From an uncultured Actinomycetota bacterium (GTDB taxonomy: Bacteria; Actinomycetota; Thermoleophilia; RBG-16-64-13): DNA of 64,000 bases. Under the pieces are notes generated by a model. It had not been told where the DNA came from. It ran no database searches and saw only the letters and a list, made by a program, of their open reading frames with translations. The position numbers and the translations under genes were made by a program. Below are positions 26,674 through 56,666 of the stretch, piece after piece (positions within the stretch are counted from its first letter, which is position 1; each line of letters starts with the position of its first letter). The DNA is taken from the NCBI GenBank assembly GCA_963783835.1, contig CAWAOX010000018.1, positions 152,435 to 216,434 on the forward strand, read 5' to 3'.

Positions 26674-26678
26674 TTAGG

Positions 26679-29423: not shown

Positions 29424-29514
29424 AAGTGTCAACCGAGGTCGTACAGGTCACAGTCAGAGCTCAGAACTCCTGCAGCAACCGGTTGTCTGACGCATATCCT
29501 GACCGCCGTCCGGA

Positions 29515-30186
29515 CTAGTCAAGCAAGTAGGCAATAGCTCGCGCAGGTGCTCCATCACCGGCCGTAATGCGAAGCGGAAGACAAACGAAGTAAATCCTCT
29601 TGCCCCCCAGTTGCTTGGCTACGGAACTGATTTCCTCGATGAGGGGAATGCCATTGCCGAGCAGAATATTGTGCGCCGGGTTCGACGTATCTCCGTATTT
29701 ATCGATGCTGAAGAAGTCTATGCCCACGGATTTCACTTTCTTCGCCACTAGCCATTCCGCACCGCTCCGATCGACGTATGTGTAGTTCGAATTGAGCCAC
29801 GCCTCTCCAAGATGGTCGGCGCAGCCGGTGTAGAGGATGACAATATCTCCTGGTCTCACCAACTCAGAGAACTTCTCCAGATCCTCGGCGCCAACAGCGG
29901 ACCCAAGCTCCTTGTCCGAAAGATCGAGGACAACTGCCTCCCCCATGAAGAGGTTCAGGTCCAATTCTTCGAGCGATAAACCTTCATTGAAGCGATGCCG
30001 CGGCGCATCGACATGCGTCCCCTGGTGCGTAGAAATCTTGAATCTGTGAACGTTAAATCCATTCTTTTCCACAGATGAGACCTGTTCAATCACCGCCGGC
30101 GCGTTGGCAGGATAGAAGGGCATCCCCTCCCATACTGGGTTGGACAGGTCATAGTATTTGCCTTTGAACGGGGCCGTCGCAGCCAT
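29515..30186 (-). CDS. Cyclase-family protein (kynurenine formamidase / isatin hydrolase type, PF04199-like), paralog A1
   Basis: HQGTHVDAPRHRF metal-binding motif, and a C-terminal HNILLGNGIPLIEE block identical to the paralog at 42133..42852. Noticeably lower GC than the pur region. Confidence 0.75.
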   Translation of the reverse strand: MAATAPFKGKYYDLSNPVWEGMPFYPANAPAVIEQVSSVEKNGFNVHRFKISTHQGTHVDAPRHRFNEGLSLEELDLNLFMGEAVVLDLSDKELGSAVGAEDLEKFSELVRPGDIVILYTGCADHLGEAWLNSNYTYVDRSGAEWLVAKKVKSVGIDFFSIDKYGDTSNPAHNILLGNGIPLIEEISSVAKQLGGKRIYFVCLPLRITAGDGAPARAIAYLLD

Positions 30187-30299
30187 TCTGGACTCCTTTG
30201 GTCTTGTCCTGCTATTCGTTAAGAACGCGGCGGTACGAATTCTCGTGCGAGTTACACTCTAGTTGCTGAGGACTAAGTCGGCGGAGCGGAACCCGCCCC

Positions 30300-31532
30300 T
30301 TACACCCTCGCGATAGTTTGTGGAGTCTTGTGGAGCCTCTCAGCTCCCTGATCGCCTACGATGTATCCATCGCATACGTTGGTCCAGACTCCCTCCCGCA
30401 CAGCGCCGGGGTGCACGGCTATGTTCATACCTCTCTCCAGCTTCCACGCCTCTTCGGGCCTGATGTTCGGCCGCTCGACAAGCGAAAGCCCTTGCCCATG
30501 GGAAAATGAGCGACCTGGCCTTCCGTAACCGCGCTCGGTTAGGAATTGAACCTGCTTCAGCCAGAGTTCTCCGGGTTCGGCACCCGGAACCATGGCCTTG
30601 GCGATGAGGTGCTGACACTCGAGCGCGTCGGCAAAAGCCTTCTCTAGGGAGGGAGAGGGCTCGCCCTGAACCGCGAAGATCTTGGTGATCTCGGTGTAAT
30701 AGCCGCAAGGTCCGTTTACTTCGACGAGCACTGAGACCTGATCCCCGGGCCGGATCACTCGGTTCTGCATACCGTAGACATCGAAAGGCACGATCGTACC
30801 CATCGGTCCCGAGCCCACCTGGATGATGCCTCGGGCACTACCGTGCTTGGAGCAGTAGTAGTGAGCCTCGGCGTACACATCGTAGTCGTGCATACCGGGC
30901 GTGATCGTCTTAGTAAGATGCTCGATACCGCATCCTCGAGCGCTGCGCAGCCCTTTATGCACTCGATCTCTTCGGGACTCTTGACGATCTTCAGCCGATC
31001 GACCAGTCGGTCGCATCGACGAACACCGCACCCGGTAGGTCTCGACCACGTACTCATAGAAGGTCACCGGAAGGAAGGTTTTCTCTACCCAGCCGATCTT
31101 AGGGTTCTTCTTTTCTCTGAGCACGCTGACAGCCAGTCTACCTTCCACTGTGCTCGAATAATGCGTGGTTGGGAAGTAGACGGCTCCCAGGGAGGCACCG
31201 ACGCCGCGTGCTAGTGCCATGGGCGGGAAAGGCTGGGTGGCGGGCGGCTCCATCCCGCAGTTGATCACCGCCATCTCACCCTCGAGCGGGAAGATCACGG
31301 TCATTGGATATTGATGGCGTGCCGCGAAGTCAGTGAACCAACGAAGAGTTCCTCCTAGAAACTCCTCGTGGTTTTGCATTACCAGATAGTCGAGCCCACG
31401 CTCTTGCATCATTTCTCGTGCGGCTTCCCAGCGGCGCTCGAGTTCGGGCGTGGAGATGCGATGGACCAGCCTCTCGACTGGGCTCACTGGGGTAGGATCA
31501 ACCACGGTCCTCTCCTTTCCTGACGAATGCAA
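30300..31532 (-). CDS. M24-family metallopeptidase (creatinase / Xaa-Pro dipeptidase-like); two compensating frameshifts near 30930-31040
   Basis: Pita-bread motifs ITPGMHDYDVYAEAHYYCSKHGSARG...GSGPMG...FSHGQGLSLVERP. The segment DRLVDRLKIVKSPEEIECIKGCAALED (typical M24) lies in a different frame (ORF 30755..31057). Confidence 0.7.
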   Translation of the reverse strand: MHSSGKERTVVDPTPVSPVERLVHRISTPELERRWEAAREMMQERGLDYLVMQNHEEFLGGTLRWFTDFAARHQYPMTVIFPLEGEMAVINCGMEPPATQPFPPMALARGVGASLGAVYFPTTHYSSTVEGRLAVSVLREKKNPKIGWVEKTFLPVTFYEYVVETYRVRCSSMRPTGRSAEDRQESRRDRVHKGLRSARGCGIEHLTKTITPGMHDYDVYAEAHYYCSKHGSARGIIQVGSGPMGTIVPFDVYGMQNRVIRPGDQVSVLVEVNGPCGYYTEITKIFAVQGEPSPSLEKAFADALECQHLIAKAMVPGAEPGELWLKQVQFLTERGYGRPGRSFSHGQGLSLVERPNIRPEEAWKLERGMNIAVHPGAVREGVWTNVCDGYIVGDQGAERLHKTPQTIARV

Positions 31533-31719: not shown

Positions 31720-32521
31720 TTACTTGTCCGCCGTCCACGACAAGCGTTGGCCGCTCATGAAGTCGCTATCGGCAGAGGCAAGAAAGAACGCCGGACCAGC
31801 CAGGTCTCCCGGGAGTTCGTTCCGCTCCTTGAGGCACTGCATGCCGCGTGTGCGCTCGCAGTGCTCCAGGATACTCTGGACCTTGCCCTGCGTTCGATGC
31901 CGTCAGCGTGAAACCGGGGGCAAGCGCGTTCACTCGAATTCCATACTCTCCCAACTCCCTCGCCAATGCTCGCGTGAATCCTATGATTCCTCCCTTGCTG
32001 ACCACATACGGGATGAACCCGCGCAGACCCTCAAAGAAAGCCGACGAAGTGATGTTGATGATCTTGCCGTACCCCTGTGGCTCCATATACGGAAAGACGG
32101 CCTGCGCCGAGAACCACATGCCGCGCAAATTGACATCCTGCGCGCTGTCCCATTCCTCAACGGTGTACTCGTCGAAGCGGCGAAGACCCGCCTTAGACGG
32201 AATTACGCGGGCAGCGGCTGCGTTGTTGACGAGAATGTCGATCTTCCCGCCGCATGCGTCCGCTAGCCGTTTTGCCGACGCTCGGCACTGATCCAAGTCG
32301 GTTACGTCACAAGTGAGCGGAATCGCGACTCCTCCGGCCGCTTGAATGTCCTCTACCACTTGCGCCGCGCTGGATGCGTGGCGAGTGAGCACTCCCACCC
32401 GGGCGCCCTCTTGGGCAAACCTCACCGCTATCGAGCGGCCGATGCTGTTGGTACCGCCAGCTCCTGTTACCAAAGCCACGCGGTCTTGAAGACGTCGGAA
32501 CGATCCGCATTCAGGTTCCAT
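31720..32521 (-). CDS. Short-chain dehydrogenase/reductase (SDR); frameshift near 31830-31850
   Basis: ATG 7 nt after GGAGGGA. VALVTGAGGTNSIGRSIA (TGxxxGxG)...NNAA...YVVSKGG (YxxxK). The canonical C-terminus ELPGDLAGPAFFLASADSDFMSGQRL appears only in a shifted frame. Confidence 0.7.
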
Positions 32522-32804
32522 ATCGTGCTCCCTCCATAGATGACCAAAATGTTCATTGATACCCGAAAAATGTGCCATTAGATTCTTTTATTGAGCTGCT
32601 TTGCACGGCTCGTGTCTCAACGGTACCAGGCCCATCGGCCGCAGACCACTCATTTTCGAAACCTGGGTGCTCTGCCAGTGGGAAGTGACTCTCTGCACAA
32701 GGAGAGTGCTTGAGTTCATATTTGTAACACGTTGACCGCATCGTGAAATCGTATTATGATGGGTCGGTCAAGAAAGTGGATGTTCGACGACGAGGGTGAT
32801 GGGA

Positions 32805-34921
32805 ATGGGGTACAGGGTCGGGGCAGACGTGGGTGGAACCTTCACCGACCTGGTGGCTATGGATGAGACGGGCAGGGTGGTAATAGCCAAAGCGCCCACG
32901 ACTCCAGCTGACCAGTCCGTCAGCGTCCAAGACGCGATCAAGAAAGCTGGTATAGATCTCGGCGCGGTCGATTTCTTTTCCCATGGCACGACCGTCGGGG
33001 TCAACGCGGTGATTGAGAACAAGGGGGCGAAGGTCGCCGTCATCACGACAGAGGGGTTCCGGGACGTGCTCGAGCTGCGTCGCGGCCGGCGTGTCATCGA
33101 GAACCCCGACGACATGTACAACCTCCAAATGGACCTTCCCCAGGACTACGTAGGTGGCTACGACCCACTGGTCAGAAGGCCGCTCCGGTTCGAAGTCCCG
33201 GAGCGCCTCGACTACCAGGGCAGCGTCCTCCGGCCTTTGGACGAGGACGCGGTCCGACGGAGCGTGGAAGATATCCGTGCTCAGGGCGTCCAAGCGGTCG
33301 TCATCTGCTATTTGTTCTCCTTCATGAATCCGGCCCATGAGCAACGAACGGCGGAGATCGTACGAGAGATGATGCCGGACGTCGATCTCTCGGTCTCCAG
33401 TGATATCCTGCCCATCGTTCGCGAGTACGAGAGGCTCAGCACGGCCACCGTGAACGCCTATGTCATGCCCATAATGCGCTCGTATCTTGGCAAGCTGCGC
33501 GACGCGCTCAAAGCCGGCGGTTTCAACCGGGACTTCTACCTGATGCAGTCGAGTGGCGGCATCATGTCCTCGGAGGTCGCCGCACGCCGGCCCGTCTATA
33601 CCATCGATTCGGGCCCGGCGGGGGGAGTGACGGCTGCCGCCCAATTGGGAATGTCGTTGGGATACCCGGATGTCATATCATTCGACATGGGCGGAACGAC
33701 GGCGAAGGTGTGCGTCATCCGCGACGGCACGCCGGAGGTGACCAGCCAGTTCTGGGTGGGTTCGAGGTACTTCATCGGGGCTCCGGTAATGGACATGGTG
33801 GAGATCGGAGCCGGAGGCGGAAGCATCGCGTCGATCGACAAGGGCGGTGGAGTCCACGTCGGTCCTCGCAGCGCCGGGTCGGTGCCGGGACCGGTCTGCT
33901 ACGGCAAAAGTGGGACCGAGCCCACGGTGACTGACGCCGATCTGATCCTGGGCTACATCAATTCTGAATACTACCTCGGCGGCGACATGACGGTAGACAT
34001 CGAGGCGGCCCGGACGGCAATCAAGACCAAGATCGCCGATCCTTTGGGCATGAGCGTCTCTGAAGCCGCACATGGGATATACCGCTTGGTCAATGCCAAC
34101 ATGATCGGCGCCACCAGGGTCGTCACCATCCAGCGAGGGCACGACCCCCGCGATTTCAGCCTGGTTGTCTCCGGTGGGACCGCGGCCATCCACGCCGTTC
34201 GCATGGCCCAGGAGCTACGTATTCCTAGGGTGATAGTCCCCCTGCAGGCTGGCGTCTTCTCGGCGGTAGGCTTGATCACTGCCGACGCCCGCTACGATGT
34301 CCACCGTTCTTACGTCGCCCGAGGTTCGCAGGCCGACCCCGGTCGCATGCAGGCGATCTTCGATGAGATAGCTCGTGAGGCGGCCGCCAGGATCGCCGAA
34401 CTGGGGTTCGCGCCCGACGACATAGTGCTGCGCTACGAGATAGACATGCGTTATCTAGGGCAGGCCCACGAGGTACCGGTTGAGGTCCCCTGCGGCCTCG
34501 TCACGGCCATGGACGAGGCCACCCTGAAGAAGCTGGTGGAGCTCTTCCACGAGAAGCATCTTCACCTGTTCGGCCACGCTTCGCGGGAGTCGGAGACTGA
34601 GTTCATGACGCTTACCGTCGCTGCGATCGGCCCAATGACCCGCGGCGAGATGCACCCGATAGAAACGGGCACGGGGGACCCCGGCGCCGCGTTCAAGGGC
34701 GTCAGAAAAGTGTTCTTCCAGGAGGCCGGCGGCTACATCGACTGCAACACCTACGAACGATCCCTGCTCAGGCGAGCAACGTGATCGTCGGCCCTGCGAT
34801 CGTCGAGCAGATGGATACCACCACGGTCCTTCCCCCCGGGGAGACGGCCCGAGTCGACGAGTACGGCACACTGATCGTCGAGCTTGCCGCGGACCAGGGC
34901 GAAGACGCGAGGGAGGTATGA
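32805..34921 (+). CDS. hyuA: Hydantoinase/oxoprolinase family A subunit (HyuA-type, ATP-dependent); frameshift near 34770-34785
   Basis: YRVGADVGGTFTDLV (ASKHA N-domain)...DMGGTTAKV... The C-terminus ASNVIVGPAIVEQMDTTTVLPPGE is in a shifted frame. The stop overlaps the hyuB ATG (ATGA). Confidence 0.8.
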
Positions 34922-36774
34922 CGATGGCGGGGAAAGAGGAGCGCCAGGACGCATTCACCCTCGGAGTCCTCCGCAGTCTGATGGAATCCATCCCTCTGGA
35001 GATGGCAGAGGTGCTTAAGCGCACCTCGTATCACCCCATCTTCAACGAGGTCCTCGATTTCTCCACGGCTCTTCTGGATTCCGAGGGCCGCCTGATCGCT
35101 TCCTCGATGGGAGTGGCGGTCCACCTTGGAGCTCTGGAACTGAGCGCCAAGGCCATAGTTGGCCACCTGGGCAAGGAGAACTTGGCCAAAGGCGACGTGA
35201 TGATCCATAACAACCCCTTCCCGGGGGGAACCCACCTACCGGACGTCGACGTGATCGCTCCCGTCTACCACAATGGTGAACTCGTGGCCTACTCGGTGGC
35301 GCGCGGCCACCACGGCGATATCGGCGGGATGCATCCGGGAAGCTTCGCCGGTGATACGGTGAGCATCTTCCAAGAAGGGGTGCGGCTGCCGCCCATCAAG
35401 CTCTACGACCGCGGAGTGCTCAACGAGGGGGTGCAAAGATCTGCTGCTGGCGAACGTTCGTGTGCCCCAGTTCACCTGGGGTGACCTTCAGGCCCAGATG
35501 GCCGGGTGCAGGCTGGGCGAGCGGCGGATCGAGGAGCTGTTCGAAAAGCATGGAGCGGAGGCTATGCAGGCGGCGATGGATTGGGCCATGGACTACTCCG
35601 AACAGCTCATGCGCGCCGAGATCGAGCGAATACCCGACGGCACGTACACCTTCGAGGACTTCTTGGACAACGATGGGATCGACAAGGATCGGCCGGTGAA
35701 GATCCACGTCAAGGTCACCATCCAAGGCAGCGATCTGACTGCGGACTTCAGCGGCTCCGACCCCCAGGTGAAGGGGCCTGCCAACTGCGTGCTCGGGGTC
35801 GTCCATTCGGCCACCTATTGCGCAATGTTCAATGTGACCGATCCGGCCATGCCGAAGAACCACGGCTGCTACCGTCCTATCAAGATCATCGCGCCTGAGG
35901 GGCTGGTGGTGAACGCCAGGTTCCCTGCTCCGGTCGTGAGCGGCAACACCGAGACGTCCCTGCGCATAATCGACGCCCTGACCGGCGCTCTCGCCAGGGT
36001 CATCCCCGAGAAGGTGATCGCGTCCGACTCAGGTACCGCCACCGCGCACATAGCGGCGGTTTCGATCCCCGCAACGGGGACTACTACGCCTGGTACCTCG
36101 GGTCCGACCCCACCGCGTGGGGGGCGCGGGCGACGAAGGACGGCTTCGAATTGGCCGGGGGGCCGCGGATAGGCGGCAGCGTGTCGCAAGTGTCGTTCGA
36201 GGTATTTGAGACCCGGTACCCTTTCCTGGTGGAAGAGTACGCCTATTATCCCGACTCCGGCGGCCCGGGCCGTTTTCGCGGTGGGATGTCGGGGGTGACC
36301 ATCATGCGGCCTGTGGGACACGAGTGCGATGTGGGAGGAGCCAACGACCGCTGCGTCATACCGCCATACGGCATTTTCGGTGGAATGCCCGGACTGCACG
36401 GCGAGAACAAGATCATCCACGCCGACGGGACGGAGACGCGCATAGATCGTGCCGGCGGCGAGATCGCCCGTGATGGAGATGTCCTCTACTTCAGGGCGCC
36501 AGGTGGGGGTGGGTATGGGGATCCCCTTGACCGCGACCTCGGCTACCTACAGCACGACCTCGATATTGGTCTGGTCTCTTCGGAAAGCGCGCGCAGGGAC
36601 TACGGCGCCGTTCTTGTCGAGGGGACGGCGACGATAGATCGCCAGTCTACTGAGGAGAACCGGGCAAAGCTCAAGGGGGAATGGAGGCGAGACCAGATCT
36701 TCATCGATCAGATGACCAAGCCCTTCGCCCAGCAGGGGTTTCGTGTCGTCGGCCTCGACGAGGAGATTTGTTGA
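34918..36774 (+). CDS. hyuB: Hydantoinase/oxoprolinase family B subunit (HyuB-type); two frameshifts (near 35470 and 36160)
   Basis: Three consecutive ORFs in different frames (34918..35484, 35462..36172, 36151..36774) together give ~619 aa of Hydantoinase_B (…VIAPVYHNGELVAYSVARGHHGDIGG…, …FETRYPFLVEEYAYYPDSGGPGRFRGG…). Confidence 0.75.
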
Positions 36775-42852: not shown

Positions 42853-42952
42853 CGTTCTTCAAGAACCGTAATCTCAGCACGTCGGCACGTCGTAACGCGA
42901 CCGGGCGAGTAGTTCATGTTCGTGACGAGAACAAAGGTTGGGAGCAAGAGCC

Positions 42953-43351: not shown

Positions 43352-43595
43352 GGTGGCCGGCATCTTTCTCCAGCGTGGCGAGACGAGGCCGGCTCCCGGC
43401 AGGGACGGGGACGTGTTGGGGGGGCCGATAACACGTCTGTCGCGCGGCCAGTCTTCGATGGGGGTTGGGGCATCCTTCAGGCTGTAGCAGATCTCTGTTG
43501 AGAGACGCGTTTGGAGTGAGGACCCATTAGCTCCCTTGGCACCAAAGAAGTGCTGGGAGCCCGGAAGGGCAGAGAGACATAGAAAAGGATTTCGC

Positions 43596-46725: not shown

Positions 46726-46830
46726 TCGATTACGCGCCTCACGTGGGACAGCCCGAAGAGGTTCTTCCACTTTGACATTGACCGAGTCATGCTCGGTCCG
46801 AACGTCCAGCATCGAAAGGCGGACGCATCG

Positions 46831-49056: not shown

Positions 49057-49069
49057 CAGGAGCAGCTCG

Positions 49070-49399
49070 ATGTCGAGAATGGCCTTGATGATAGATTACG
49101 AATTCTGCACCGGCTGCCACAGTTGTGAGGTCGCCTGCAAACAAGAGCATGGCTATCCCGTGGGAATCGGCGGTATTCACATGAACGAGGTAATGACGAC
49201 CAAGCCCGATGGTGAGCTGAGAATCGATTACCTGCCCTTTCCTACTATCTACTGCGATCTCTGCAGTGCTCGAACGGCCCAGGGCGAGGTTCCGGCGTGC
49301 GTGAAGCACTGCCAAACCGCAGTGATGAACTACGGCAGCACTGTTGAGTTGGCTCGACTGATGGAGGAGCGGAGTCACGCAGCCATGTTCACGCCGTAG
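49070..49399 (+). CDS. Small 4Fe-4S ferredoxin-like subunit (109 aa) of the molybdopterin enzyme
   Basis: CTGCHSCEVAC (CxxCxxCxxxC) plus YCDLCSARTAQGEVPACVKHC. Follows the alpha subunit after a 13-nt gap. Confidence 0.7.
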   Translation: MSRMALMIDYEFCTGCHSCEVACKQEHGYPVGIGGIHMNEVMTTKPDGELRIDYLPFPTIYCDLCSARTAQGEVPACVKHCQTAVMNYGSTVELARLMEERSHAAMFTP

Positions 49400-49532
49400 T
49401 CGGGTTCGTTAGACATGGCTGGAAGCGCGCGTGACGGCAGATAGCCGTGTGGCTTGGCGCTTCTGAAGAGAGCAGCGGCGCCCGAGCTGTGTCCTCCCAA
49501 TAGGGGTCGCCAGATGCAAGGAGGCAGATTAG

Positions 49533-50386
49533 GTGAAGCTATACGTCTTGAACGGCGGCCAGTTGTTCGTGGAAAAGGGCTTTTCTCGCACTTTGGCACG
49601 GCGGAGGACAATGACAAGGACTACGAGCCCGAGGCTCGCATTCTTCGCAGTCTCCAGTTCTACGTCGAGCACCCCGAGGCCAAGATTGTTTTCGAACTCG
49701 GGTACGACAACGATGACTTCAGCAAGTTTGAGGGGTTCCCGCATCGTCAGGGACCCGGAGGGATGTGGAGCCACCAGGAGCCGGATGAGAACCCGGTGGC
49801 CCAGTTGAAGCAGATCGGTGTCAAGCCAGAAGACATCGACTATGCAGTCGTGTCTCATCTCATGAGCGAGCATGTGGGCTACCTTCCGCACTTCGCGGGG
49901 ACGAAGGCGAAGATCGTTGTTCAGCAGGACGAACAGGAGTACGCGAGCCGGATAGGGGTCCCGCCGAGTCCGGGGGACGAGCCGGCGGTGGAGCAGTTCC
50001 ATTCCTGGATGTACCTTCGCAAACTCTACGAGGTGCCCGGCCTCAACTATATCTACATCACGGGTGACCACGAACTAGTAGGCAAGGATGTCGAGATTCT
50101 GTCACTACCAGCGCATACACCCGGATTTCCATACGTGATGGTGCGTCTGCCGAAGACCGGCCCCGTGTTCCTGTCCGCCTGTGAGACAAGGGGCATGTAC
50201 TACGACGTGCCGATCAACGGCTATGCCCCCGGAATACCGCATGCGTTCACGTGGTCCGCAGCCGGGGAGTTGCACAGCTTCAAGAGGGTGCGGGACCTTG
50301 TCGAGGGGGAGGAGGGACAGATCTTTTTCGGTCATGACCTGGAACAGTTCCTTACGTTGAAAGCGGCGCCCGAGTACTACGACTGA
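49533..50386 (+). CDS. MBL-fold-like metallo-hydrolase, paralog B; frameshift near 49580-49600
   Basis: MKLYVLNGGQLFVEKGF, then a frame shift to ...SHFGTAEDNDKDYEP...VVSHLMSEHVGY...LPAHTPGF...FFGHD (ORF 49454..50386 frame). Confidence 0.65.
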
Positions 50387-50458
50387 GCAGCGGATCAGGC
50401 TGCGCGAGGTGGCGTTGGGGGAATGAGCCAGAAGCTGGAAAGCAGAAAGGAGCGGCAA

Positions 50459-51949
50459 ATGAGCAGCGGGGGAAAAGAGCCGAAAGACCGAGAAGGCGCG
50501 ACCGGCGCAACGCCGGGACCCGTCATCAGCCGGAGGGAGTTCCTCAAGGTCGCGGGGATAGCTGGCGCCGCGATTGGTGTCGGCGCGGGGCTGGGCGGGT
50601 TGCTGGCCGCCTGCGGTAATGAGACGACCACCACGACCGGGGCGCCGACCACCGGGGCGCCGACCACCCAGGCGACCACGGCTACGACGGCGGCGGCCAG
50701 CACCACCACCGTCAGTGCTGCCGCCGAGATGGGCCGGGAGATTAAGATCGGTGTCGTGATGCCCAAGACCGGCCCGCTGGCGGCCTTCGGCCCGGCGGAC
50801 GAGTGGGGCGCCAGTCTGGCGTCCGAAGTGATAGGGGACGGGATGGTCCTTGGGGACGCCAAGAAGCACCCGGTCACCTTCGTGCTGAGAGACTGTCAAT
50901 CCGACTCCAACAGAGCCGCCCAGATAGCGGGCGATCTTATCCAGAACGACAAGGTGGACATACTCCTGGGCTCGGTGACTCCCGATGTCACAAACCCGGC
51001 TGCGGATCAGGCCGAGGCCATGGGGACGCCTTTCATGACCAGCTATGCTCCCTGGCAGGCGTTCATATTCGGGCGGGGCGCCGATCTGACCAAGACGTTC
51101 AAGTGGACGTATGCTCATTCGATGGGCACCGAGCAGATGGGCTATAGCATCATCGGGGCCGTAGATCAGATCCCCAACAACAAGATGGTCGCACTTATCA
51201 CCATGAACAACCCGGACGGCAATGCCTGGCTGGACGACAAATACGGCACCCCGGTGGCCTTGCGAAAGTACGGCTATGAACTGGCCGCCTCCACCCAGTT
51301 CAATCTAGGCTCCGAGGACTTCACCAAGGAGATCGCCACTTTCAAGAAGGCGGGCGTCGACGTGCTGATCGCCGCAATGCAACCGCCGGATTTCACCAAT
51401 TTCTGGAAGCAATCGATGCAGCAGGGGTTCACTCCTAAGATACCGAGCGGAGGGCTGGGCATCACGATGCCTCCGGGCGTGGCTGGCATCGGCCCGCAAG
51501 CAGTCGGCCTGATCATCGAGCACGGCTGGACTCGGGACTATCCCTACATCGATCCTCTCACCGGGATGAATTGCCCGCAGTTGGCGGCGAGATGGGAGAA
51601 GGACACCGGCCTCCAAGAGCAATTGTCCATCGGCTTCCTGGACAAGTTCGCGTGGACGGTAGATGTGCTCAAGCGCACCAAGAACCTGGACGACAAAGAG
51701 TCGATCGTCGAGGCCATCAAGACCACCAAGATGGACGGCATAACCGGTCCCATCGATTTCACTGCCCCGATCGACGCCGATCCAACTGCGACGGACAGCT
51801 TCCGGCCGCATCCGAACGTGTCCAAGCCCGTGTGGACCGGTGCGCAATGGATCAAAGGGACGACGTGGCCTATCGACGCGGTGACCGTGAATAACGTATT
51901 GGCTCCGGCGGTGCCGACGGTGCCGACAGTCCCGTACGTGTACGCATGA
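50459..51949 (+). CDS. Orphan ABC substrate-binding lipoprotein, branched-chain-amino-acid type, paralog B
   Basis: AAGGAG RBS. SRREFLKVAG plus lipobox LLAAC, a T/A linker, then IKIGVVMPKTGPLAAFG...CQSDSNRAAQIAGDLI. Confidence 0.75.
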   Translation: MSSGGKEPKDREGATGATPGPVISRREFLKVAGIAGAAIGVGAGLGGLLAACGNETTTTTGAPTTGAPTTQATTATTAAASTTTVSAAAEMGREIKIGVVMPKTGPLAAFGPADEWGASLASEVIGDGMVLGDAKKHPVTFVLRDCQSDSNRAAQIAGDLIQNDKVDILLGSVTPDVTNPAADQAEAMGTPFMTSYAPWQAFIFGRGADLTKTFKWTYAHSMGTEQMGYSIIGAVDQIPNNKMVALITMNNPDGNAWLDDKYGTPVALRKYGYELAASTQFNLGSEDFTKEIATFKKAGVDVLIAAMQPPDFTNFWKQSMQQGFTPKIPSGGLGITMPPGVAGIGPQAVGLIIEHGWTRDYPYIDPLTGMNCPQLAARWEKDTGLQEQLSIGFLDKFAWTVDVLKRTKNLDDKESIVEAIKTTKMDGITGPIDFTAPIDADPTATDSFRPHPNVSKPVWTGAQWIKGTTWPIDAVTVNNVLAPAVPTVPTVPYVYA

Positions 51950-52093: not shown

Positions 52094-52981
52094 ATGGAGC
52101 GTATGCACCGAGTTCTCTTGCCCTTTGAGTTCGCCGAGCCCACGAGCGTGGCCGAGGTCATCGAACTCGTGGACGGCGAGAAGGCCAGACCGCTAGCCGG
52201 AGGCGTCGATCTTGTCCTCAAGATGCGGCTGCGCCAAGTCGTCCCGGAGAGGGTGGTCAGCCTGCAGAAAGTGCCCGGCCTGGACTACGTGCAGGCGGAT
52301 GGCTATACGCTCAGATTCGGCGCTCTAGCCACGCTCAGGCAGATTGAGCGGGCACCGGAGGTCAAGGACCGGTGGCCCCTCCTGGCCGAAGCCATCGGTT
52401 GCATCGTGTCCGTGCAGACCAAGGTGATGGGCACGGCGGTCGGCAACCTGTGTGTCGGCACCCCGGCGTCCGACGTGGCCCCGGCCCTCTACGCCCTCGG
52501 CGCCCGGGTGAAGATCGCCGGCAGGCAGGGGGTGCGGGAGATCCCCATCGAGGAGTTCTTCGTGGACGCCGGGAAGACCGCGGTCGGGCGTAACGAGATC
52601 GTGACAGAGATCGTGGTGCCGGTCCCGCCTTTGGGGAGCGCCGGCGCTTTCCTCAAGCTCTCCAAGACCTCCGAAGATATCGCCAAAGTGAACGCCGCCG
52701 TCATGGTGTCCGTTTCCGGCGACACCTGCACTTCGGCTCGGATCGCCCTTGGCTCGGTGGCGCCGACCCCGGTGAGGGCGGTGGAAGCGGAGCAAGTGCT
52801 GCAAGGACGGCCTTTGAGCGCGAAAGCTATCGCGGAGGCAGCCGAAGCGGCCTGCGAAGCGGTCGCTCCGATATCCGACGTGCGCTCCACCGCGGCCTAC
52901 CGCAACGAGATGGTGCGGGTGCTGGTCCGGGACGCGCTGGTCAGGGCGGTCTCGCGAGTCCCAGCTGCAAAGGAGGGATGA
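52094..52981 (+). CDS. Xanthine-dehydrogenase-family molybdoenzyme, FAD-binding medium subunit (CoxM-like)
   Basis: PCMH-type FAD domain (…ARPLAGGVDLVLKMRL…) with a CO-dehydrogenase-flavoprotein C-terminal domain. Translationally coupled to the next two genes. Confidence 0.75.
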   Translation: MERMHRVLLPFEFAEPTSVAEVIELVDGEKARPLAGGVDLVLKMRLRQVVPERVVSLQKVPGLDYVQADGYTLRFGALATLRQIERAPEVKDRWPLLAEAIGCIVSVQTKVMGTAVGNLCVGTPASDVAPALYALGARVKIAGRQGVREIPIEEFFVDAGKTAVGRNEIVTEIVVPVPPLGSAGAFLKLSKTSEDIAKVNAAVMVSVSGDTCTSARIALGSVAPTPVRAVEAEQVLQGRPLSAKAIAEAAEAACEAVAPISDVRSTAAYRNEMVRVLVRDALVRAVSRVPAAKEG

Positions 52982-53466
52982 TGGCCAAGGAGATAGCGAC
53001 CTTTCTCGTCAACGGCGGGGAGTACGAAGTCATCATCGAGCCCCACGTGCTCCTCATCGATGTGCTCCGGGACAAGCTCGGGCTCACCGGGACCAAATAC
53101 GCCTGCGGCGCCGGTGACTGCGGCGCCTGCACCGTCCTCATCGACGGCAGACCTTCGTTCTCGTGCCTCACGCTGGCGGTCACAGCCAAAGGCAAGAGCA
53201 TCTTTACCATCGAGGGCCTGGCGGAAGGAAATGAACTCCATCCTATCCAGCAGGCTTTCGTGGATAAGGGAGCCATCCAGTGTGGCTTCTGCACGCCGGG
53301 CATGATCCTCTCGGCCAAGGCGCTGCTGGATGAGAACCCCGAGCCCACCCGGGAGGAGATAAAGAGCGCTCTTGCCGGCAACCTATGCCGCTGCACCGGT
53401 TATGTGAAGATCCTGGACGCCGTTGAGTCTGCAGCCGCCGGCCTGAGGAACGGAGGGCAACGATGA
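52978..53466 (+). CDS. Xanthine-dehydrogenase-family [2Fe-2S] small subunit (CoxS-like)
   Basis: CGAGDCGACTV (plant-type 2Fe-2S) plus CGFCTPGM...CRCTGY (second cluster). Confidence 0.8.
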   Translation: MMAKEIATFLVNGGEYEVIIEPHVLLIDVLRDKLGLTGTKYACGAGDCGACTVLIDGRPSFSCLTLAVTAKGKSIFTIEGLAEGNELHPIQQAFVDKGAIQCGFCTPGMILSAKALLDENPEPTREEIKSALAGNLCRCTGYVKILDAVESAAAGLRNGGQR

Positions 53467-55775
53467 CCATGAATACGTTCTCCTGCGTCGGCAAGCCGCT
53501 TACCCGGCCAGATGTTGCTGCCAAGGCTACTGGTGCAGCCGAATACGGAGCCGACGTCACGCTTCCGGGCATGCTGATCGGCAGGATCCTCACTAGCCCA
53601 TACGCTCATGCCAACGTTGTCAAGATCGACACCTCGAGGGCGAGAGCTCTTCCCGGGGTGGCCGCGGTAATAACCCACGAAGACGTCCCCAAGAGAAGCT
53701 TCACCCGCTCGGTCATGGCCGAGGGCCTGCCCCCGTTCGCCTATGAGGGCGAGAATCAGGATCAGTACATCCTCTCCGACAAGGCCCGGTACGTCGGCGA
53801 CTGGATCGCCGCGGTGGCCGCCGTCGATGTGTACACGGCTGAGCGGGCCCTCGACCTCATCGAGGTCGAATACGAGCCGCTTCCCGCCGTCTTCGACCCG
53901 GCAGAAGCCCTCGAGCCGGGTGCTCCCACCGTCCACGAACGCTGGAGGGACAACGTCGCCGGGGTCATCGAGCACTCGTTCAACCGGGGCGACCTGGACA
54001 AGGCCTTGGCCGAGTCCGAATACGTGGTCGAGTTCTCCGGCCGCAATTCCCGGCAGAAACAGGCTCATATGGAGCCGGACGTGGCGGTAGCGCGCTGGGA
54101 CGAACGCGGCCGAGTGACGATCTGGTCGCCGAACCAGAACGCTCACCTCGCCAAGAGGACCATGGCACGGAGGATCTTCGGCATCGGCGAGGGGGACGTC
54201 CGCTGGATCACCACGACCGTGGGCGGAGGGTTCGGGGCTAGGCTCAGTCTTGGAGTCGAGCCGCTCGCCGCGCTACTCGCCAAGGTGACCGGCAAACCGG
54301 TGAAGGTGATCATCACCCGGGAAGAGGACTTCAGTGGCTGGAGCAGCCGTACGGAGCAGCGTCAGACCATCCGACTCGGCGTCACCAAAGATTGCATCAT
54401 CACAGCCATCGAGCAGAGGATCGTCTCCGACGCCGGCGCCTACTTCTCCCACAGCGGCACTATCAGTGCCGTCAACATGCAGGGGACGTTGGGAGTGATG
54501 CGTGCGCCCGTGATATACGGCAAGGCAACGATCGTCTACACCAACAACCCCACCTCGAGCGGCATGCGGGGATACGGCAACCCGGAGGGGTCCTTCATCC
54601 TGCAGCAGGCTATCGACATGGCCGCCGAGAAGTGCGGGATGGACCCCCTCGAGTTCCGCCTGAGGAACGCCAGGGGGGTGGGTGAGCCCAGCATGTGGGA
54701 GCCCCAGATCCTGACGAGTTGCGCTCTTCCTGAGTGCATCACCCGGGGCGCCGAGGCCATCGGCTGGAAGGACAAGTGGTTGGGGTGGGGCCGAAAGAAG
54801 GAGGGCCGCTACCGGCGCGGAGTGGGCATGTCCATCATGACCCACGCAAGCGGCGCGGGTGGCTTCCTCCTGGAACACTCGACCGCCTCCATCAAGTTGA
54901 ACGAGGACGGCTCGGCCCAGCTTGCGGTCAGCCCCTGTGAGATGGGCCAGGGCATCCTCGGCGCCCTCTCGCAGATCGCCGCCGAAGGGATGGGTCTCCG
55001 CTACGAAGACATCCACGTGGTGACCGGGGATACCGACGTCACTCTCTTCGATATCGGCACCCACGCCAGCCGCTCCACCTACGCCATCGGCAACGCCGTC
55101 CTCGACGCGGGTCGCCAGATCAAGGCCATCGTCCTCGAGCGGGCGGCCGCAAGGCTGGAGGCTGCGCCTGAAGCCCTCGACATCAGAGAAGGCCGAGTCT
55201 ACGCGAATGACGATGCCGCGAAAGGCCTGAGCGTGGCCGAGATAGCGAGCGAGGGCATCTACGACTACGGCTTAGACGCGCGGCACATCCAGGCGACCGG
55301 CAAGCACCAGAGCCTCACCCACTGCCCCAACTTCCAGGCGGGTTTTGCCGAGATCGAGGTCGATCTCGAGACCGGGGTGATAAAGGTGCTCAAGTTCGTG
55401 GTCGCCCACGACATCGGCCGGGCCATCAACCCGCTCACGGTGGAGTCCTGTCTTGAAGGGGGCGCCTATCAGGGCTTGGGCTATGCGTTGACCGAGGACC
55501 TCCTTATAGACGGCAAGACCGGCAAGGTGCTCACCGACAGCTTCGCGACCTACAAGATGCTCTCCACCCTGGATATGCCGCCAGTAGAAGTCATCCTCGT
55601 AGAAGAACCCGATCCGACCGGGCCCTTCGGAGCCAAGGGCGTGGGCGAGACCGGAATCACTAACGTGGCGCCCTCGATTGCGAACGCTCTGTACGACGCG
55701 GTCGGTGTACGGATCCATTCGCTTCCGATGACCCCAGAAAAGGTTCTGGAAGCGCTAAAGACGAAACAGGCTTAG
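53463..55775 (+). CDS. Xanthine-dehydrogenase-family molybdopterin-binding large subunit (CoxL-like, hydroxylase type)
   Basis: 770 aa with aldehyde-oxidase/XDH a/b-hammerhead and MoCo domains. GGGFGAR motif (hydroxylase-type rather than the CODH VAYRCSFR loop). Confidence 0.8.
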   Translation: MTMNTFSCVGKPLTRPDVAAKATGAAEYGADVTLPGMLIGRILTSPYAHANVVKIDTSRARALPGVAAVITHEDVPKRSFTRSVMAEGLPPFAYEGENQDQYILSDKARYVGDWIAAVAAVDVYTAERALDLIEVEYEPLPAVFDPAEALEPGAPTVHERWRDNVAGVIEHSFNRGDLDKALAESEYVVEFSGRNSRQKQAHMEPDVAVARWDERGRVTIWSPNQNAHLAKRTMARRIFGIGEGDVRWITTTVGGGFGARLSLGVEPLAALLAKVTGKPVKVIITREEDFSGWSSRTEQRQTIRLGVTKDCIITAIEQRIVSDAGAYFSHSGTISAVNMQGTLGVMRAPVIYGKATIVYTNNPTSSGMRGYGNPEGSFILQQAIDMAAEKCGMDPLEFRLRNARGVGEPSMWEPQILTSCALPECITRGAEAIGWKDKWLGWGRKKEGRYRRGVGMSIMTHASGAGGFLLEHSTASIKLNEDGSAQLAVSPCEMGQGILGALSQIAAEGMGLRYEDIHVVTGDTDVTLFDIGTHASRSTYAIGNAVLDAGRQIKAIVLERAAARLEAAPEALDIREGRVYANDDAAKGLSVAEIASEGIYDYGLDARHIQATGKHQSLTHCPNFQAGFAEIEVDLETGVIKVLKFVVAHDIGRAINPLTVESCLEGGAYQGLGYALTEDLLIDGKTGKVLTDSFATYKMLSTLDMPPVEVILVEEPDPTGPFGAKGVGETGITNVAPSIANALYDAVGVRIHSLPMTPEKVLEALKTKQA

Positions 55776-55788
55776 GAGAGGAGCTCTC

Positions 55789-56583
55789 ATGAGGATGATC
55801 GACCCCCATCTGCACTTGGACCGCATGAAGGGCAAAGACGTCGAGACCCTCTCTATCGCGGGAGTCGAGGCGGCGGTGCTGCCGACACCCCATCTTCTGC
55901 AGTGGATGGTCTCGGCGGAGACGCTCTTTCGGATGTGGCGCATGTTCTTGGACTTCGAGGTCAAGCACTCCGAATCGCTTGGTATCAAGGTCTTTGTGAC
56001 CCTGGGCGTCCCTTTCTACGGACTGGATACGGAATCCGTGGCCGAGGCCCTGGTCGAGCTGCCCAAGTATCTGAGCCATCCCTCCGTCGTGGGTCTCGGG
56101 GAGATAGGCATGGACGCCGGCATAGCCGACGAGGAGAAGATCTTCCGGAGACAACTGGCCATCGCCAAGGAGCATGACAAGCCAGTGATTGTGCACACCC
56201 CGACTCCGTTGGAGCCACAAGCCACGGACGTCTTCCGCCAAATAGTCAAAGTGGTCGAGAGCGAGCACTTCCCCATGGATCGGGTGGTATTCGATCACAC
56301 TGGGATCCAGACCCTGAAGGAACGCCTCAATACGGGAGCTATGGTCGGACTGAGCCTCTGCTACGACAAACTCCGGCCGGAAGACGCAGCCGAGGTGGTT
56401 GCCGAGTACGAGGATTACCGGCCACAACTGCTGGTCAATTCGGAATTCGGCTACAGCGGGGAAGGGTACTACTCGGTACCGCGGGCGGTGCTCTCTATGC
56501 GGAGACTGGGACTCAAGAGGGATGTCATCGAAGGCGTCACCTGGGATAACCCGCGTAGGTTCTTTGGTCTGAACGTGGATTAG
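55789..56583 (+). CDS. TatD-like metal-dependent hydrolase, paralog B
   Basis: AGGAGAGGAG RBS. MRMIDPHLHLDRMKGKDVETLSIAG..., about 85% identical to the paralog at 43596. Confidence 0.7.
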   Translation: MRMIDPHLHLDRMKGKDVETLSIAGVEAAVLPTPHLLQWMVSAETLFRMWRMFLDFEVKHSESLGIKVFVTLGVPFYGLDTESVAEALVELPKYLSHPSVVGLGEIGMDAGIADEEKIFRRQLAIAKEHDKPVIVHTPTPLEPQATDVFRQIVKVVESEHFPMDRVVFDHTGIQTLKERLNTGAMVGLSLCYDKLRPEDAAEVVAEYEDYRPQLLVNSEFGYSGEGYYSVPRAVLSMRRLGLKRDVIEGVTWDNPRRFFGLNVD

Positions 56584-56666
56584 GGACGGGAGGCCCTCCG
56601 CTGAGAGCTTGAGCGTGGTGGTGTACCATGACCGCGAATACGGATGAATCGAGAGTTGAGCTGTAG

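Follow-up and report, generated by a model that had tools for sequence, protein, structure and literature searches.

A mosaic catabolic island with a rearranged, conserved HyuAB–RidA–MBL–CoxMSL gene cluster in an uncultured Actinomycetota bacterium

We analyzed a 64,000-nucleotide (nt) stretch of contig CAWAOX010000018.1 (GenBank assembly GCA_963783835.1) from an uncultured Actinomycetota bacterium, referred to below as the window, with positions counted from the first letter of the whole stretch, and detected in it a block of catabolic genes of deviating composition. Pfam matches place these genes in the following order: a minus-strand cyclase, M24 metallopeptidase, and short-chain dehydrogenase/reductase (SDR); then HyuA, HyuB, a metallo-beta-lactamase (MBL)-fold hydrolase, two RidA proteins, an IclR regulator, and a solute-binding protein (SBP); then a cyclase, a VOC protein, a TatD-type hydrolase, an old yellow enzyme (OYE)/4Fe-4S/FAD protein, a molybdenum bis-pyranopterin guanine dinucleotide (Mo-bisPGD) enzyme with a small Fer4 subunit, a second MBL protein, a second SBP, CoxM, CoxS, CoxL, and a second TatD protein. 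The same families had been listed in an earlier sequence-only reading of this DNA, and Pfam bears that list out, with the exception of a GntR regulator: the only GntR/FCD gene lies outside the block, at 61387–62154. That reading was also right that the two SBPs come with no transport machinery, as Pfam scans of the open reading frames (ORFs) of the block recovered no permease or ATP-binding cassette (ABC) ATPase genes. The features of the block and its borders are as follows.

26600–26674, plus strand: tRNA-Lys (UUU), the left anchor of the island (ARAGORN; Rfam tRNA, 72 bits)
26955–29423, mixed strands: insertion sequence (IS) debris (Pfam and ORF translations), comprising the next four entries
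26955–27433, plus strand: IS481/IS3-like helix-turn-helix pieces
27843–28382, minus strand: Transposase_20 part of a broken IS110-family transposase
28638–29096, minus strand: DEDD N-terminal part of a broken IS110-family transposase
29196–29423, plus strand: rve_3 integrase end
29515–30186, minus strand: Cyc1, cyclase-family protein 1 (Pfam Cyclase, 2e-29)
30300–31532, minus strand: M24 metallopeptidase-family gene (Pfam Peptidase_M24)
31766–32578, minus strand: SDR oxidoreductase (Pfam adh_short)
32796–34920, plus strand: hyuA, by family the ATP-binding subunit of an ATP-dependent lactamase-type enzyme (Pfam Hydant_A_N, Hydantoinase_A, Hydant_A_C)
34924–36774, plus strand: hyuB, by family the hydrolytic subunit (three ORFs that match consecutive parts of Hydantoinase_B)
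36818–37672, plus strand: MBL1, MBL-fold hydrolase, lactonase-like (Pfam Lactamase_B)
37823–38236, plus strand: RidA1, RidA-family protein (Pfam Ribonuc_L-PSP)
38233–38679, plus strand: RidA2, RidA-family protein (Pfam)
38852–39610, plus strand: IclR-family regulator (Pfam HTH_IclR, IclR_C)
40418–41905, plus strand: SBP1, Peripla_BP_6 solute-binding lipoprotein (Pfam; twin-arginine translocation (TAT) signal, lipobox, Thr-rich linker)
42133–42852, plus strand: Cyc2, cyclase-family protein, isatin-hydrolase-like (Pfam Cyclase, 9e-39)
42938–43351, plus strand: VOC/glyoxalase-fold protein (Pfam Glyoxalase; 85% identical to its homolog in locus L144, introduced below)
43536–44390, plus strand: TatD1, TatD-type metal hydrolase (Pfam TatD_DNase)
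44605–46725, plus strand: OYE-[4Fe-4S]-FAD/NAD(P) flavoenzyme, 2-naphthoyl-CoA-reductase-like, with dienoyl-CoA-reductase architecture (Pfam Oxidored_FMN, Pyr_redox_2)
46831–49056, plus strand: Mo/W-bisPGD catalytic subunit, acetylene-hydratase-like, cytoplasmic (Pfam Molybdop_Fe4S4, Molybdopterin, Molydop_binding)
49070–49399, plus strand: ferredoxin-like subunit of 109 amino acids (aa) with eight Cys, 2x[4Fe-4S] (Pfam Fer4 families, Cys pattern)
49454–50386, plus strand: MBL2, MBL-fold hydrolase (Pfam)
50423–51949, plus strand: SBP2, Peripla_BP_6 solute-binding lipoprotein (Pfam; TAT signal and lipobox)
52094–52981, plus strand: CoxM-type FAD subunit of a xanthine dehydrogenase (XDH)-family molybdoenzyme (Pfam FAD_binding_5, CO_deh_flav_C)
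52978–53466, plus strand: CoxS-type 2x[2Fe-2S] subunit (Pfam Fer2, Fer2_2; eight Cys)
53463–55775, plus strand: CoxL-type molybdopterin subunit (Pfam Ald_Xan_dh_C, MoCoBD_1, MoCoBD_2)
55789–56583, plus strand: TatD2, TatD-type metal hydrolase (Pfam TatD_DNase)
56667–56738, plus strand: IclR gene remnant of 24 codons, the right breakpoint (direct repeat D3, shared with the beginning of the intact IclR)

Average guanine-plus-cytosine (GC) content falls from 0.669 over positions 1–26599 to 0.603 over 29501–56740, and in sliding windows it is 0.65–0.69 up to about 27 kb, 0.56–0.64 at 28–57 kb, and partly recovers beyond. At third codon positions, GC content (GC3) is 0.80–0.89 in nine flanking housekeeping genes and 0.61–0.87 across the island genes, where it is very uneven: the OYE protein (0.87), CoxM/CoxL (0.82), and HyuB (0.81) lie at the high end and SDR (0.61), Cyc1 (0.63), and IclR (0.63) at the low end, with the Mo-bisPGD gene at 0.75. 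The lower-GC block claimed by the sequence-only reading is therefore real, but its limits of 29500–56600 were drawn too narrowly, since the block extends from the tRNA-Lys at 26.6 kb through the IS debris to the IclR stump at 56.7 kb. This stump begins 84 nt past the TatD2 stop codon, holds the first 24 codons of the gene, and then breaks off; over these 24 aa, identity to the IclR downstream of TatD in locus L091 is 83%. DNA similarity to L091, L093, and L128 (87–93%; 87–92% over CoxL-TatD for L091 and L128) ends at about 56565, beyond which those relatives carry unrelated housekeeping genes. At the left border, Pfam and ORF translations revealed only broken transposase pieces and no intact integrase, and the 3′ end of the tRNA-Lys has no repeat of at least 13 nt elsewhere in the window, leaving no att site. 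The block thus lies next to a tRNA, carries mobility-gene remnants, deviates in composition, and has another context in relatives L091 and L128, all of which are marks of a genomic island; the tRNA-Lys border, the IS debris, and the truncated IclR are what an insertion followed by truncation would leave. We conclude that the block at 26.6–56.7 kb is a catabolic island of mosaic makeup, with features that indicate its acquisition by horizontal transfer.

Gene neighborhoods were compared using three anchors, the Mo-bisPGD subunit, CoxL, and the OYE protein, for which 146 loci were fetched. CoxL homologs are numerous at 75–96% identity; the metagenome scan with this anchor gave 51 loci. Partner families were counted in the 15 loci with a CoxL of at least 60% identity and at least 6 kb of flank. 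A core operon, HyuA-HyuB-RidA-MBL-(SBP)-CoxM-CoxS-CoxL-RidA-TatD-IclR, recurs compactly in many contigs of metagenomes and metagenome-assembled genomes (MAGs), its homologs belonging to uncultured bacteria from sediment and soil metagenomes, with the few named ones in Actinomycetota/Thermoleophilia and Chloroflexota. Locus L092 reads Aminotran_3-HyuA-HyuB-RidA-MBL-CoxM-CoxS-CoxL at 71–87% aa identity to the window, an order also found in L095 and L096, and L117 reads HyuA-HyuB-RidA1-MBL-SBP2-CoxMSL-RidA2-TatD-IclR at 67–90% identity to the window proteins; parts or permutations of the operon occur in L097, L099, L101, L107/108, L113, L116, L119, L091, and L128. Among the 15 CoxL loci, HyuAB, RidA, and TatD were each present in seven and at least one partner family in 10, and in four of the five loci with no partner the upstream sequence is missing. 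Wherever CoxL was at least 78% identical and at least 6 kb of upstream sequence was available, HyuA-HyuB-RidA-MBL lay directly upstream (4/4 loci), and in these four loci, as in L144, RidA stands directly behind HyuB. The HyuA-HyuB-RidA order is tight and recurrent, and stop and start codons sometimes overlap. No close relatives were found on sequenced plasmids, where CoxL reached at most 58% and HyuB at most 42% identity. A full-text literature search found no published description of a HyuAB-RidA-MBL-CoxMSL operon, in agreement with the sequence-only reading, which had not recognized the gene set as a described pathway.

The nearest cultured CoxL homolog, at 58%, is on plasmid p1 of Gemmobacter fulvus (L146, NZ_CP076362.1, 143–175 kb). 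Two XDH-family enzyme sets are clustered there with genes for VOC, cupin, a fumarylacetoacetase-family hydrolase, RidA, CoxG, and GntR, and HyuAB is missing. This cluster, annotated only generically, looks like one for aerobic N-heteroaromatic degradation.

The wider makeup of the island is matched in another contig, L144, where 12 of the 24 island genes are found on a 17-kb stretch at 76–94% aa identity, mainly in matching order, with the others in rearranged blocks. L144 reads IclR-SBP-cyclase-VOC-OYE-SDR(minus strand)-MBL-HyuA-HyuB-RidA-MBL-SBP-CoxM..., with hyuA and hyuB intact; its aa identities to the window are 93% for IclR, 85% for Cyc2, VOC, and SDR, 94% for OYE, and 76% for the MBL protein, and in the core part 84% for HyuA, 81–89% for HyuB, 91% for RidA1, 82% for MBL, and 81% for SBP2, followed by CoxM. 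The remaining core genes, CoxS, CoxL, RidA2, and the TatD family, are linked to L144-shared genes in other loci. The backbone has two parts, the core operon and, beside it, a module of the order IclR-SBP-cyclase-VOC-OYE/FeS/FAD-SDR-MBL. DNA identity between the window and L144 is approximately 90–92% over IclR-SBP1-Cyc2-VOC and OYE and 77–81% over SDR, HyuAB, RidA1, MBL, and SBP2. TatD1 is an extra copy between VOC and OYE (an interval of 1175 bp in the window vs 134 bp in L144), and window positions 46771–49413, which hold the Mo-bisPGD pair, take the place of the L144 SDR segment at 7522–8807. Both MBL1/MBL2 (77% aa identity) and TatD1/TatD2 (83%) are paralogous duplicates within the island.

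These comparisons revealed that the backbone in the window has been rearranged into two complementary partial copies of the conserved operon: a left copy, HyuAB-MBL1-RidA1-RidA2-IclR, and a right copy, MBL2-SBP2-CoxMSL-TatD2-IclR stump, kept apart by the SBP1-cyclase-VOC-OYE module and the inserted Mo-bisPGD cassette. The additions to this backbone are the duplicated TatD, the Mo-bisPGD cassette, and M24 and Cyc1 at the left edge; across the 146 fetched loci, Cyc1 found only 25–34% matches, and M24 had no homolog in any of them. The conservation of the neighborhood that the sequence-only reading had proposed to check is thus present for most of the genes, both on L144 and in 10/15 CoxL loci. 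A single pathway that takes in all the enzymes is not supported, as the Mo-bisPGD pair is an independent cassette and M24 and Cyc1 have no conserved partner. Mosaicism therefore accounts in part for the unusual enzyme combination.

The Mo-bisPGD alpha-beta pair is an independent mobile cassette, not a member of the backbone. A small ferredoxin-like gene lies directly behind the alpha gene in 81/88 homolog loci surveyed, and no homologs of CoxMSL, MBL, SBP, M24, or VOC were found within 10 kb of the gene in the surveyed loci; we rejected it as an anchor for the island, as a scan of 80 loci never shows CoxMSL, MBL, or SBPs beside it. Thousands of homologs exist at 60–75% identity, mostly in Dehalococcoidia MAGs, with other hosts including Desulfobacterota, Acidobacteriota, Neomoorella sulfitireducens, and Desulfopila. 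They occur in unrelated contexts, among them one with a TRAP transporter, beta-oxidation genes, and an aldehyde:ferredoxin oxidoreductase; in one Chloroflexia MAG, the order is HyuA-HyuB-MoPGD-small-RidA-TatD-RidA with ABC transporters, and the closest homolog on a long contig (P0122) is among housekeeping genes only, with no called small subunit. In Neomoorella sulfitireducens, a cultured acetogen relative (L006/L061, NZ_JANRHG010000009.1), the Mo-bisPGD gene and its mini-ferredoxin lie inside a phloroglucinol/pyrogallol-transhydroxylase cluster with SDR, BKACE, 3HCDH, cupin, an AthL-like transhydroxylase pair, a CoA transferase, and two cyclases.

The best match of the catalytic subunit in the Protein Data Bank (PDB) is acetylene hydratase (2e7z, 1.3e-98). 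The enzyme of Pelobacter acetylenicus is likewise cytoplasmic with a conserved metal-ligand Cys: Cys145 of the window protein aligns with the metal-ligand Cys of 2e7z and is invariant in 18 homologs, and inspection of the subunit sequence revealed no TAT signal. The first FeS motif (46831–46900) is C-x2-H-x2-C...C, here CGSHGGC...C (Cys16, His19, Cys22, Cys50), vs the usual C-x2-C-x3-C...C, and His19, Cys22, and Cys50 are invariant in 18 homologs; the Cys-Asp pair of acetylene hydratase, in which the Asp beside the second FeS-cluster Cys is the catalytic residue, is not present in that form in the CGSHGGC motif, a region that precedes the start of the phmmer alignment. Acetylene hydratase is a single-subunit, non-redox enzyme with no electron-transfer partner, whereas this family is nearly always found with a 2x[4Fe-4S] subunit, a partnership that implies redox chemistry. 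Similarity to the pyrogallol transhydroxylase AthL is slight, with no PF21423 hit in the subunit and a score of just 7e-7 for 4v4c. Acetylene-hydratase-like genes in sediment Chloroflexi have been noted earlier without a function (PMC3971608).

Six frame disruptions fall within 30.9–36.1 kb, in M24, hyuA, and hyuB, far denser than in the rest of the window. The M24 ORF stays open across a garbled segment of approximately 105 nt (~30926–31031) with three frame changes, where the conserved peptide LVDRLKIVKSPEEIECIKGCAALEDAV falls in another frame and the conserved sequence passes through the two alternative frames one after the other. Comparison by tblastn with three intact homologs revealed a 1-nt deletion near 34769 in hyuA, which leaves two colinear pieces in different frames, and a 1-nt insertion near 35434 and a 1-nt deletion near 36055 in hyuB, which leave three frames whose colinear pieces (residues 1–171, 169–378, and 377–615) give complete coverage; these three indels (two deletions, one insertion) are not clearly in homopolymers. 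A reading of the six disruptions as outright pseudogene decay is tempered by a frame change in purM and two further candidates in the flanks. purM and purN read as one 627-aa ORF (19636–21519, plus strand), in which the purM frame changes near 20304 and its conserved C-terminal half (...AHITGGG...) sits in the next frame. A codon-bias scan gave further same-strand frame changes at ~3954 (plus) and ~58107 (minus), with no stop codon nearby, the former in a FAD-dependent protein (2623–4215) with a C-terminal domain match cut short. As the housekeeping gene purM carries such a change, either as an assembly indel or as a real frameshift, assembly errors may account for at least some of the island disruptions. 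Single frameshifts in hyuB or hyuA also occur in independent metagenome contigs that carry the operon, L096 (~4250) and L117 (~2842 and the MBL N-terminus). The six disruptions may represent either real decay or assembly indels, and the island copy may be damaged.

The same features bear on an unlikely account of the island, in which unrelated catabolic fragments have accreted beside a tRNA and insertion sequences and are decaying with no working pathway. The IS debris with its broken IS110-family transposase, the truncated IclR, the heterogeneous GC3, the six frame disruptions, the duplicate MBL and TatD genes, the absence of permease genes, and the lack of conserved partners for the Mo-bisPGD cassette, M24, and Cyc1 would all fit such a graveyard of genes. 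However, the two partial copies jointly hold one full set of the conserved operon, twelve genes are common with a single 17-kb stretch of L144, mostly in the same order, and every gene at 36.8–56.6 kb aligns full-length with its homologs in one frame; the change in purM and the candidates near 3954 and 58107 suggest in addition that some of the disruptions may be assembly indels.

Among the backbone enzymes, HyuAB carries the full domain set of the hydantoinase/oxoprolinase family and is colinear with intact homologs, with the frame broken once in hyuA and twice in hyuB. RidA-family proteins are enamine/imine deaminases. RidA1 is 77–91% identical to the RidA behind HyuB in L092, L095, L096, L117, and L144, and RidA2 is 66–81% identical to the RidA behind CoxL in L097, L098, L099, and L117. 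An intact HyuB homolog matched N-methylhydantoinase (9e-90) and caprolactamase CapB (4e-85), with acetophenone carboxylase (ApcD, 7e-37) and acetone carboxylase (3e-16) well behind, which places HyuB by sequence with the ATP-dependent lactamases, at a large distance from the carboxylases. This placement and the RidA directly behind HyuB in other loci uphold the logic of the sequence-only reading, which took the families as typical of N-heterocycle or lactam breakdown. The caprolactamase equivalogs NF050156/NF050157 were not reached (HyuA 589.7 and L092 HyuB 337.5, vs 1000 bits). Two-subunit HyuA/HyuB architecture, as in the island, is found in CapAB, the valerolactam enzyme OplBA, N-methylhydantoinase, and 5-oxoprolinase, and in ATP-dependent lactamases the A subunit phosphorylates the lactim and the B subunit hydrolyzes it (PMC8453981). 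The class-III aminotransferase directly upstream of HyuA in L092 is a further likeness to the caprolactam pathway; unlike the island operon, the known ATP-dependent lactamase systems have no link to an XDH-family molybdoenzyme, RidA, MBL, or TatD.

The hydrolases and the regulator are tied to the operon by identity to their counterparts elsewhere. MBL1, whose best PDB matches are acyl-homoserine lactone (AHL) lactonases (~1e-19), shares 87% identity with the MBL encoded in the compact L092 operon, and MBL2 is 85–89% identical to the MBL preceding SBP2 in L097 and L117. TatD2, which in the PDB matches only the uncharacterized archaeal protein AF_1765 (1e-22), is 82–90% identical to the gene behind CoxL in L091, L117, L119, and L128. 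The intact IclR is 93% identical to the product of the first gene of the L144 cluster, and its nearest NCBIfam model is the PcaR/PcaU/PobR family, with a score under the cut-off of that model.

CoxMSL has the three-subunit architecture of an XDH-family hydroxylase: a FAD subunit, a 2x[2Fe-2S] subunit, and a molybdenum cofactor subunit with a hammerhead and two MoCoBD domains. CoxL is 96% identical to protein P0137; in the PDB it ranks 4-hydroxybenzoyl-CoA reductase (4-HBCR, HcrABC) alpha first (2e-105), followed by 6-hydroxypseudooxynicotine dehydrogenase (2e-86), with quinoline 2-oxidoreductase fourth (9e-75) behind a CO dehydrogenase (CODH) large chain, and nicotinate dehydrogenase a distant match (4e-58 and 3e-54 for its two chains). 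The catalytic Glu E729 (GVGE) is invariant in 21 homologs and aligns with the Glu of the GxGES motif in quinoline oxidoreductase and CODH. The AYRCSFR loop of CODH is absent, with SSGMRGYGNPEG where 1zxi has GGVAYRCSFRVTEA, and CoxL scores 300 against the form I CODH model TIGR02416, under its 991. HcrABC is the closest solved structure to CoxL and has the same subunit architecture as CoxMSL, but the models of its subunits are not reached, with 552.5 vs a cut-off of 994.6 for CoxL against HcrA (TIGR03194) and 119 vs 404.6 for CoxM against HcrB (TIGR03195), the latter match being split around the loop region. The extra Cys-rich [4Fe-4S] loop of HcrB is absent from CoxM, where the FAD_binding_5 match is colinear with no insertion and there are only four scattered Cys.

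Between the two partial copies lies the SBP1-cyclase-VOC-OYE module. SBP1 is 94–96% identical to the SBP of L144, an alignment that fixes its start; SBP2, in the right copy, is 81–89% identical to the SBP between MBL and CoxM in L097, L117, and L144. Both are TAT-lipobox lipoproteins with Thr-rich linkers, predicted features that fit a monoderm host. Cyc2 matched isatin hydrolase A (2e-27) and kynurenine formamidase (3e-18) in the PDB. Against the arylformamidase equivalog (TIGR03035), with its cut-off of 223, Cyc2 scores 61.4 and Cyc1 94.6 bits; isatin hydrolase and kynurenine formamidase share the Pfam Cyclase domain with them. So does a C–C hydrolase of the phloroglucinol pathway, dihydrophloroglucinol cyclohydrolase (PMC10470551), and with both C–N and C–C ring hydrolases in the family the bond cleaved is not readable from the sequences of Cyc1 and Cyc2. 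The minus-strand SDR is, over residues 20–236, 85% identical to the SDR adjacent to OYE in L144, with a divergent C-terminus.

The OYE protein, 94% identical to P0257 of L144 and with a CxxCxxC...C motif at residues 402–420, has the OYE-[4Fe-4S]-ADP-binding architecture of trimethylamine/histamine dehydrogenases. Its PDB matches are nevertheless led by 2-naphthoyl-CoA reductase (NCR, 1e-57), ahead of histamine dehydrogenase (7e-39), dienoyl-CoA reductase (1e-37), and trimethylamine dehydrogenase (2e-30); by these scores the protein is closer to NCR than to trimethylamine dehydrogenase, the likeness named in the sequence-only reading. This reductase is the closest solved structure and shares the domain architecture, but the island has no enzyme that forms CoA esters. 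OYE homologs of 85–87% identity adjoin two AthL-like (pyrogallol-transhydroxylase-like) enzymes, a cyclase, a CoA ligase, and a 2-oxoacid:ferredoxin oxidoreductase.

Our leading reading, which we put forward tentatively and with somewhat less than even confidence, is that the island is a mosaic with a rearranged conserved cluster whose backbone degrades an N-heterocyclic compound without oxygen. Taken with the XDH-family enzyme, the recurrent HyuA-HyuB-RidA order suggests that hydroxylation is followed by ATP-dependent cleavage and RidA deamination, and formation of a lactam by the molybdenum hydroxylase, its opening by HyuAB, and release of ammonia by RidA is, judging from family membership, the most likely function of the backbone. 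In such a pathway, a lipoprotein SBP would bind the substrate, for which a permease would be encoded elsewhere, and the XDH-family molybdoenzyme would hydroxylate the carbon beside the ring nitrogen with water to give a lactam. HyuAB would then phosphorylate and hydrolyze the lactam at the expense of ATP, and the RidA encoded behind HyuB would act on the enamine or imine so formed, yielding ammonia and a keto compound by hydrolysis. The second RidA and the hydrolases of the MBL-fold and TatD types may process one more cyclic ester or amide and another imine. The neighboring module would add ring reduction (OYE/FeS/FAD), hydrolytic opening (the isatin-hydrolase-like cyclase), and tailoring (VOC and SDR), with IclR as the putative regulator of the cluster. 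Pyridine-carboxylate/pyridone-type or oxindole/isatin-type compounds appear to fit best as substrates. No riboswitch reached the gathering score or E<=0.1 in the island by Rfam, which leaves no substrate clue from that side.

Two described systems resemble the proposed route. Nicotinate fermentation in Eubacterium barkeri proceeds through nicotinate dehydrogenase, 6-hydroxynicotinate reductase, and enamidase, and it combines molybdenum-dependent hydroxylation beside the nitrogen, ring reduction by an FeS flavoenzyme, and hydrolytic opening of a cyclic amide, with ammonia set free from an enamine. In E. barkeri, enamidase, an ATP-independent bifunctional amidohydrolase, opens the ring, whereas in the island HyuAB and RidA would share this task, and the downstream B12 mutase and methylitaconate genes of E. 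barkeri are absent from it. The iaa genes, with which Aromatoleum/Azoarcus degrade indoleacetate anaerobically, were reportedly described by Ebenau-Jehle et al. in 2012. The strategy of this cluster pairs a molybdenum hydroxylase with a HyuAB-type hydrolase proposed to open the resulting lactam (2-oxindole ring), a pairing shared with the island in another O2-independent N-heterocycle route. The iaa cluster also needs beta-oxidation genes, a B12-dependent mutase, and a CoA ligase and CoA transferase, none of which Pfam detects among the island genes, and it is not known to include RidA, MBL, or TatD partners. IaaCE has been listed as a hydantoinase-like hydrolase (PMC8453981).

Several observations weigh against degradation of an N-heterocycle by this backbone. 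No enzyme of the island reaches any NCBIfam equivalog cut-off, every activity being assigned from its family, and the ATP-dependent step is encoded in the window by the frame-disrupted genes hyuA and hyuB. A transporter permease is absent from the island. L144 ends at CoxM, and the full supercluster is contiguous in one other contig only. The accessory genes of the operon vary between loci, including an aminotransferase, a flavin reductase, an isochorismatase, a DAO-type oxidase, UbiD decarboxylases, beta-oxidation genes, and LivHM-type permeases, and no consistent substrate clue emerged from them in eight core-operon loci. Finally, the closest solved relatives of CoxL and OYE, 4-HBCR and NCR, are reductases of anaerobic aromatic metabolism, and these kin, with the transhydroxylase and CoA ligase neighbors of OYE homologs, make phenolic substrates possible for the OYE module.

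These last points lead to a second account, which we consider rather improbable, in which the whole cluster degrades a hydroxylated aromatic acid or polyphenol anaerobically, with CoxMSL as a reductive dehydroxylase, OYE as a dearomatizing reductase, the cyclase as a C–C ring hydrolase like dihydrophloroglucinol cyclohydrolase, and the Mo-bisPGD enzyme as a hydroxylase or transhydroxylase. The rank of 4-HBCR and NCR as best solved homologs, the GGGFGAR motif common to CoxL and 4-HBCR, the transhydroxylase neighbors of OYE homologs, the Neomoorella pair inside a phloroglucinol/transhydroxylase cluster with two cyclases, the C–C hydrolase within the cyclase family (PMC10470551), and the resemblance of IclR to the PcaR/PobR family all agree with such a role. 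Set against them, CoxM lacks the [4Fe-4S] insertion that defines 4-HBCR beta, CoxL falls under the cut-off of the 4-HBCR alpha model, the island has no CoA ligase or CoA transferase, and HyuB groups with lactamases, not carboxylases. In addition, the close linkage of the two RidA genes to HyuB and CoxL in locus after locus speaks for imine/enamine (nitrogen) chemistry.

It is less probable again that the substrate is creatinine, N-methylhydantoin, or another hydantoin, with HyuAB as an N-methylhydantoinase and M24 as a creatinase-like enzyme. In favor of it, HyuB has N-methylhydantoinase as its best solved homolog, the island contains an M24 gene, and downstream genes in some homologous loci include a DAO-type oxidase or a member of the isochorismatase family, to which N-carbamoylsarcosine amidase belongs, but caprolactamase scores almost equally, and the known route needs no molybdenum hydroxylase, RidA, MBL, or TatD enzyme. 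The M24 gene, moreover, is never operon-linked elsewhere, has no match to the creatinase N-terminal domain in Pfam, and is garbled. That CoxMSL is a xanthine dehydrogenase in a purine salvage or degradation unit is very improbable: XdhA is the top NCBIfam model for CoxL, XdhB is among the best for CoxM, and the left flank is a pur cluster (purA, purD, purB, purL, purF, purM/N, purH), yet CoxL stays under the XdhA cut-offs (634.6 vs 780 bits for NF043082 and 591.6 vs 916 for PRK09970), the tRNA, IS debris, and different composition set the island apart from the pur genes, its close operon homologs lie in unrelated contexts, and no uricase, allantoinase, or Clostridium-type purine-fermentation genes accompany it.

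Outside the island, several further features were detected. A tryptophanase-family gene (59965–61344, minus strand) lies divergent to the GntR/FCD regulator (61387–62154, plus strand); it passed a subfamily NCBIfam model and reached neither the tryptophanase nor the tyrosine phenol-lyase equivalog. The sequence-only reading had placed a tryptophanase just outside the block, and a gene of that family is indeed there, but the adjacency is not conserved, as L091 and L128 have other genes at this place. In the left flank, a DnaB replicative helicase (55–2604, plus strand) is interrupted by an intein bearing a homing-endonuclease domain of the LAGLIDADG type (Pfam DnaB, DnaB_C, Intein_splicing, LAGLIDADG_3), and a single 604-aa ORF (5605–7419, plus strand) holds PurD (GARS_N/A/C) and PurE (AIRC) domains, either as a true fusion or by read-through. 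A multiheme c-type cytochrome of the NapC/NirT or cytochrome c7 type (14060–15376, minus strand) lies among the pur genes, and a cobalamin riboswitch (19035–19219, minus strand; Rfam, 63 bits) lies upstream of genes for a BtuF-like Peripla_BP_2 protein, a FecCD permease, and an ABC ATPase (15324–18889, minus strand), which are probably a B12 uptake operon. Directly before the tRNA-Lys, a 345-aa membrane protein (25131–26168, minus strand) has a Cys-rich N-terminal motif, CPRCIVNDPYPGVCRLYEDTDGDGICD, and a long Thr/Ala-rich linker, with no Pfam match. Within the island, ARAGORN also called a 93-nt tRNA-Val (30273–30365, minus strand) that overlaps the 3′ end of M24, has no Rfam support, and is probably a false positive.

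The cluster consists of known enzyme families in a conserved, apparently undescribed arrangement, and nothing in it departs from those families. The acetylene-hydratase-like Mo/W enzymes with a mini-ferredoxin, a large family abundant in Dehalococcoidia and other anaerobes, are separated here from the backbone as a second question, and Neomoorella sulfitireducens could serve to find their function. Anaerobic breakdown of N-heterocycles (pyridines, indole/oxindole, quinolines, and cyclic amides) is biochemically documented and genetically poorly defined, and what was an odd list of genes is now testable, with intact operon copies (L092, L095, and L144), a stated mechanism, and a dedicated binding protein, SBP2. 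It is possible, although on balance doubtful, that the widespread core operon of uncultured anaerobic Actinomycetota and Chloroflexota encodes an undescribed O2-independent opening of N-heteroaromatic rings, and that together with the cyclase/OYE module it may be the missing gene set for anaerobic degradation of a pyridine- or indole-type compound.

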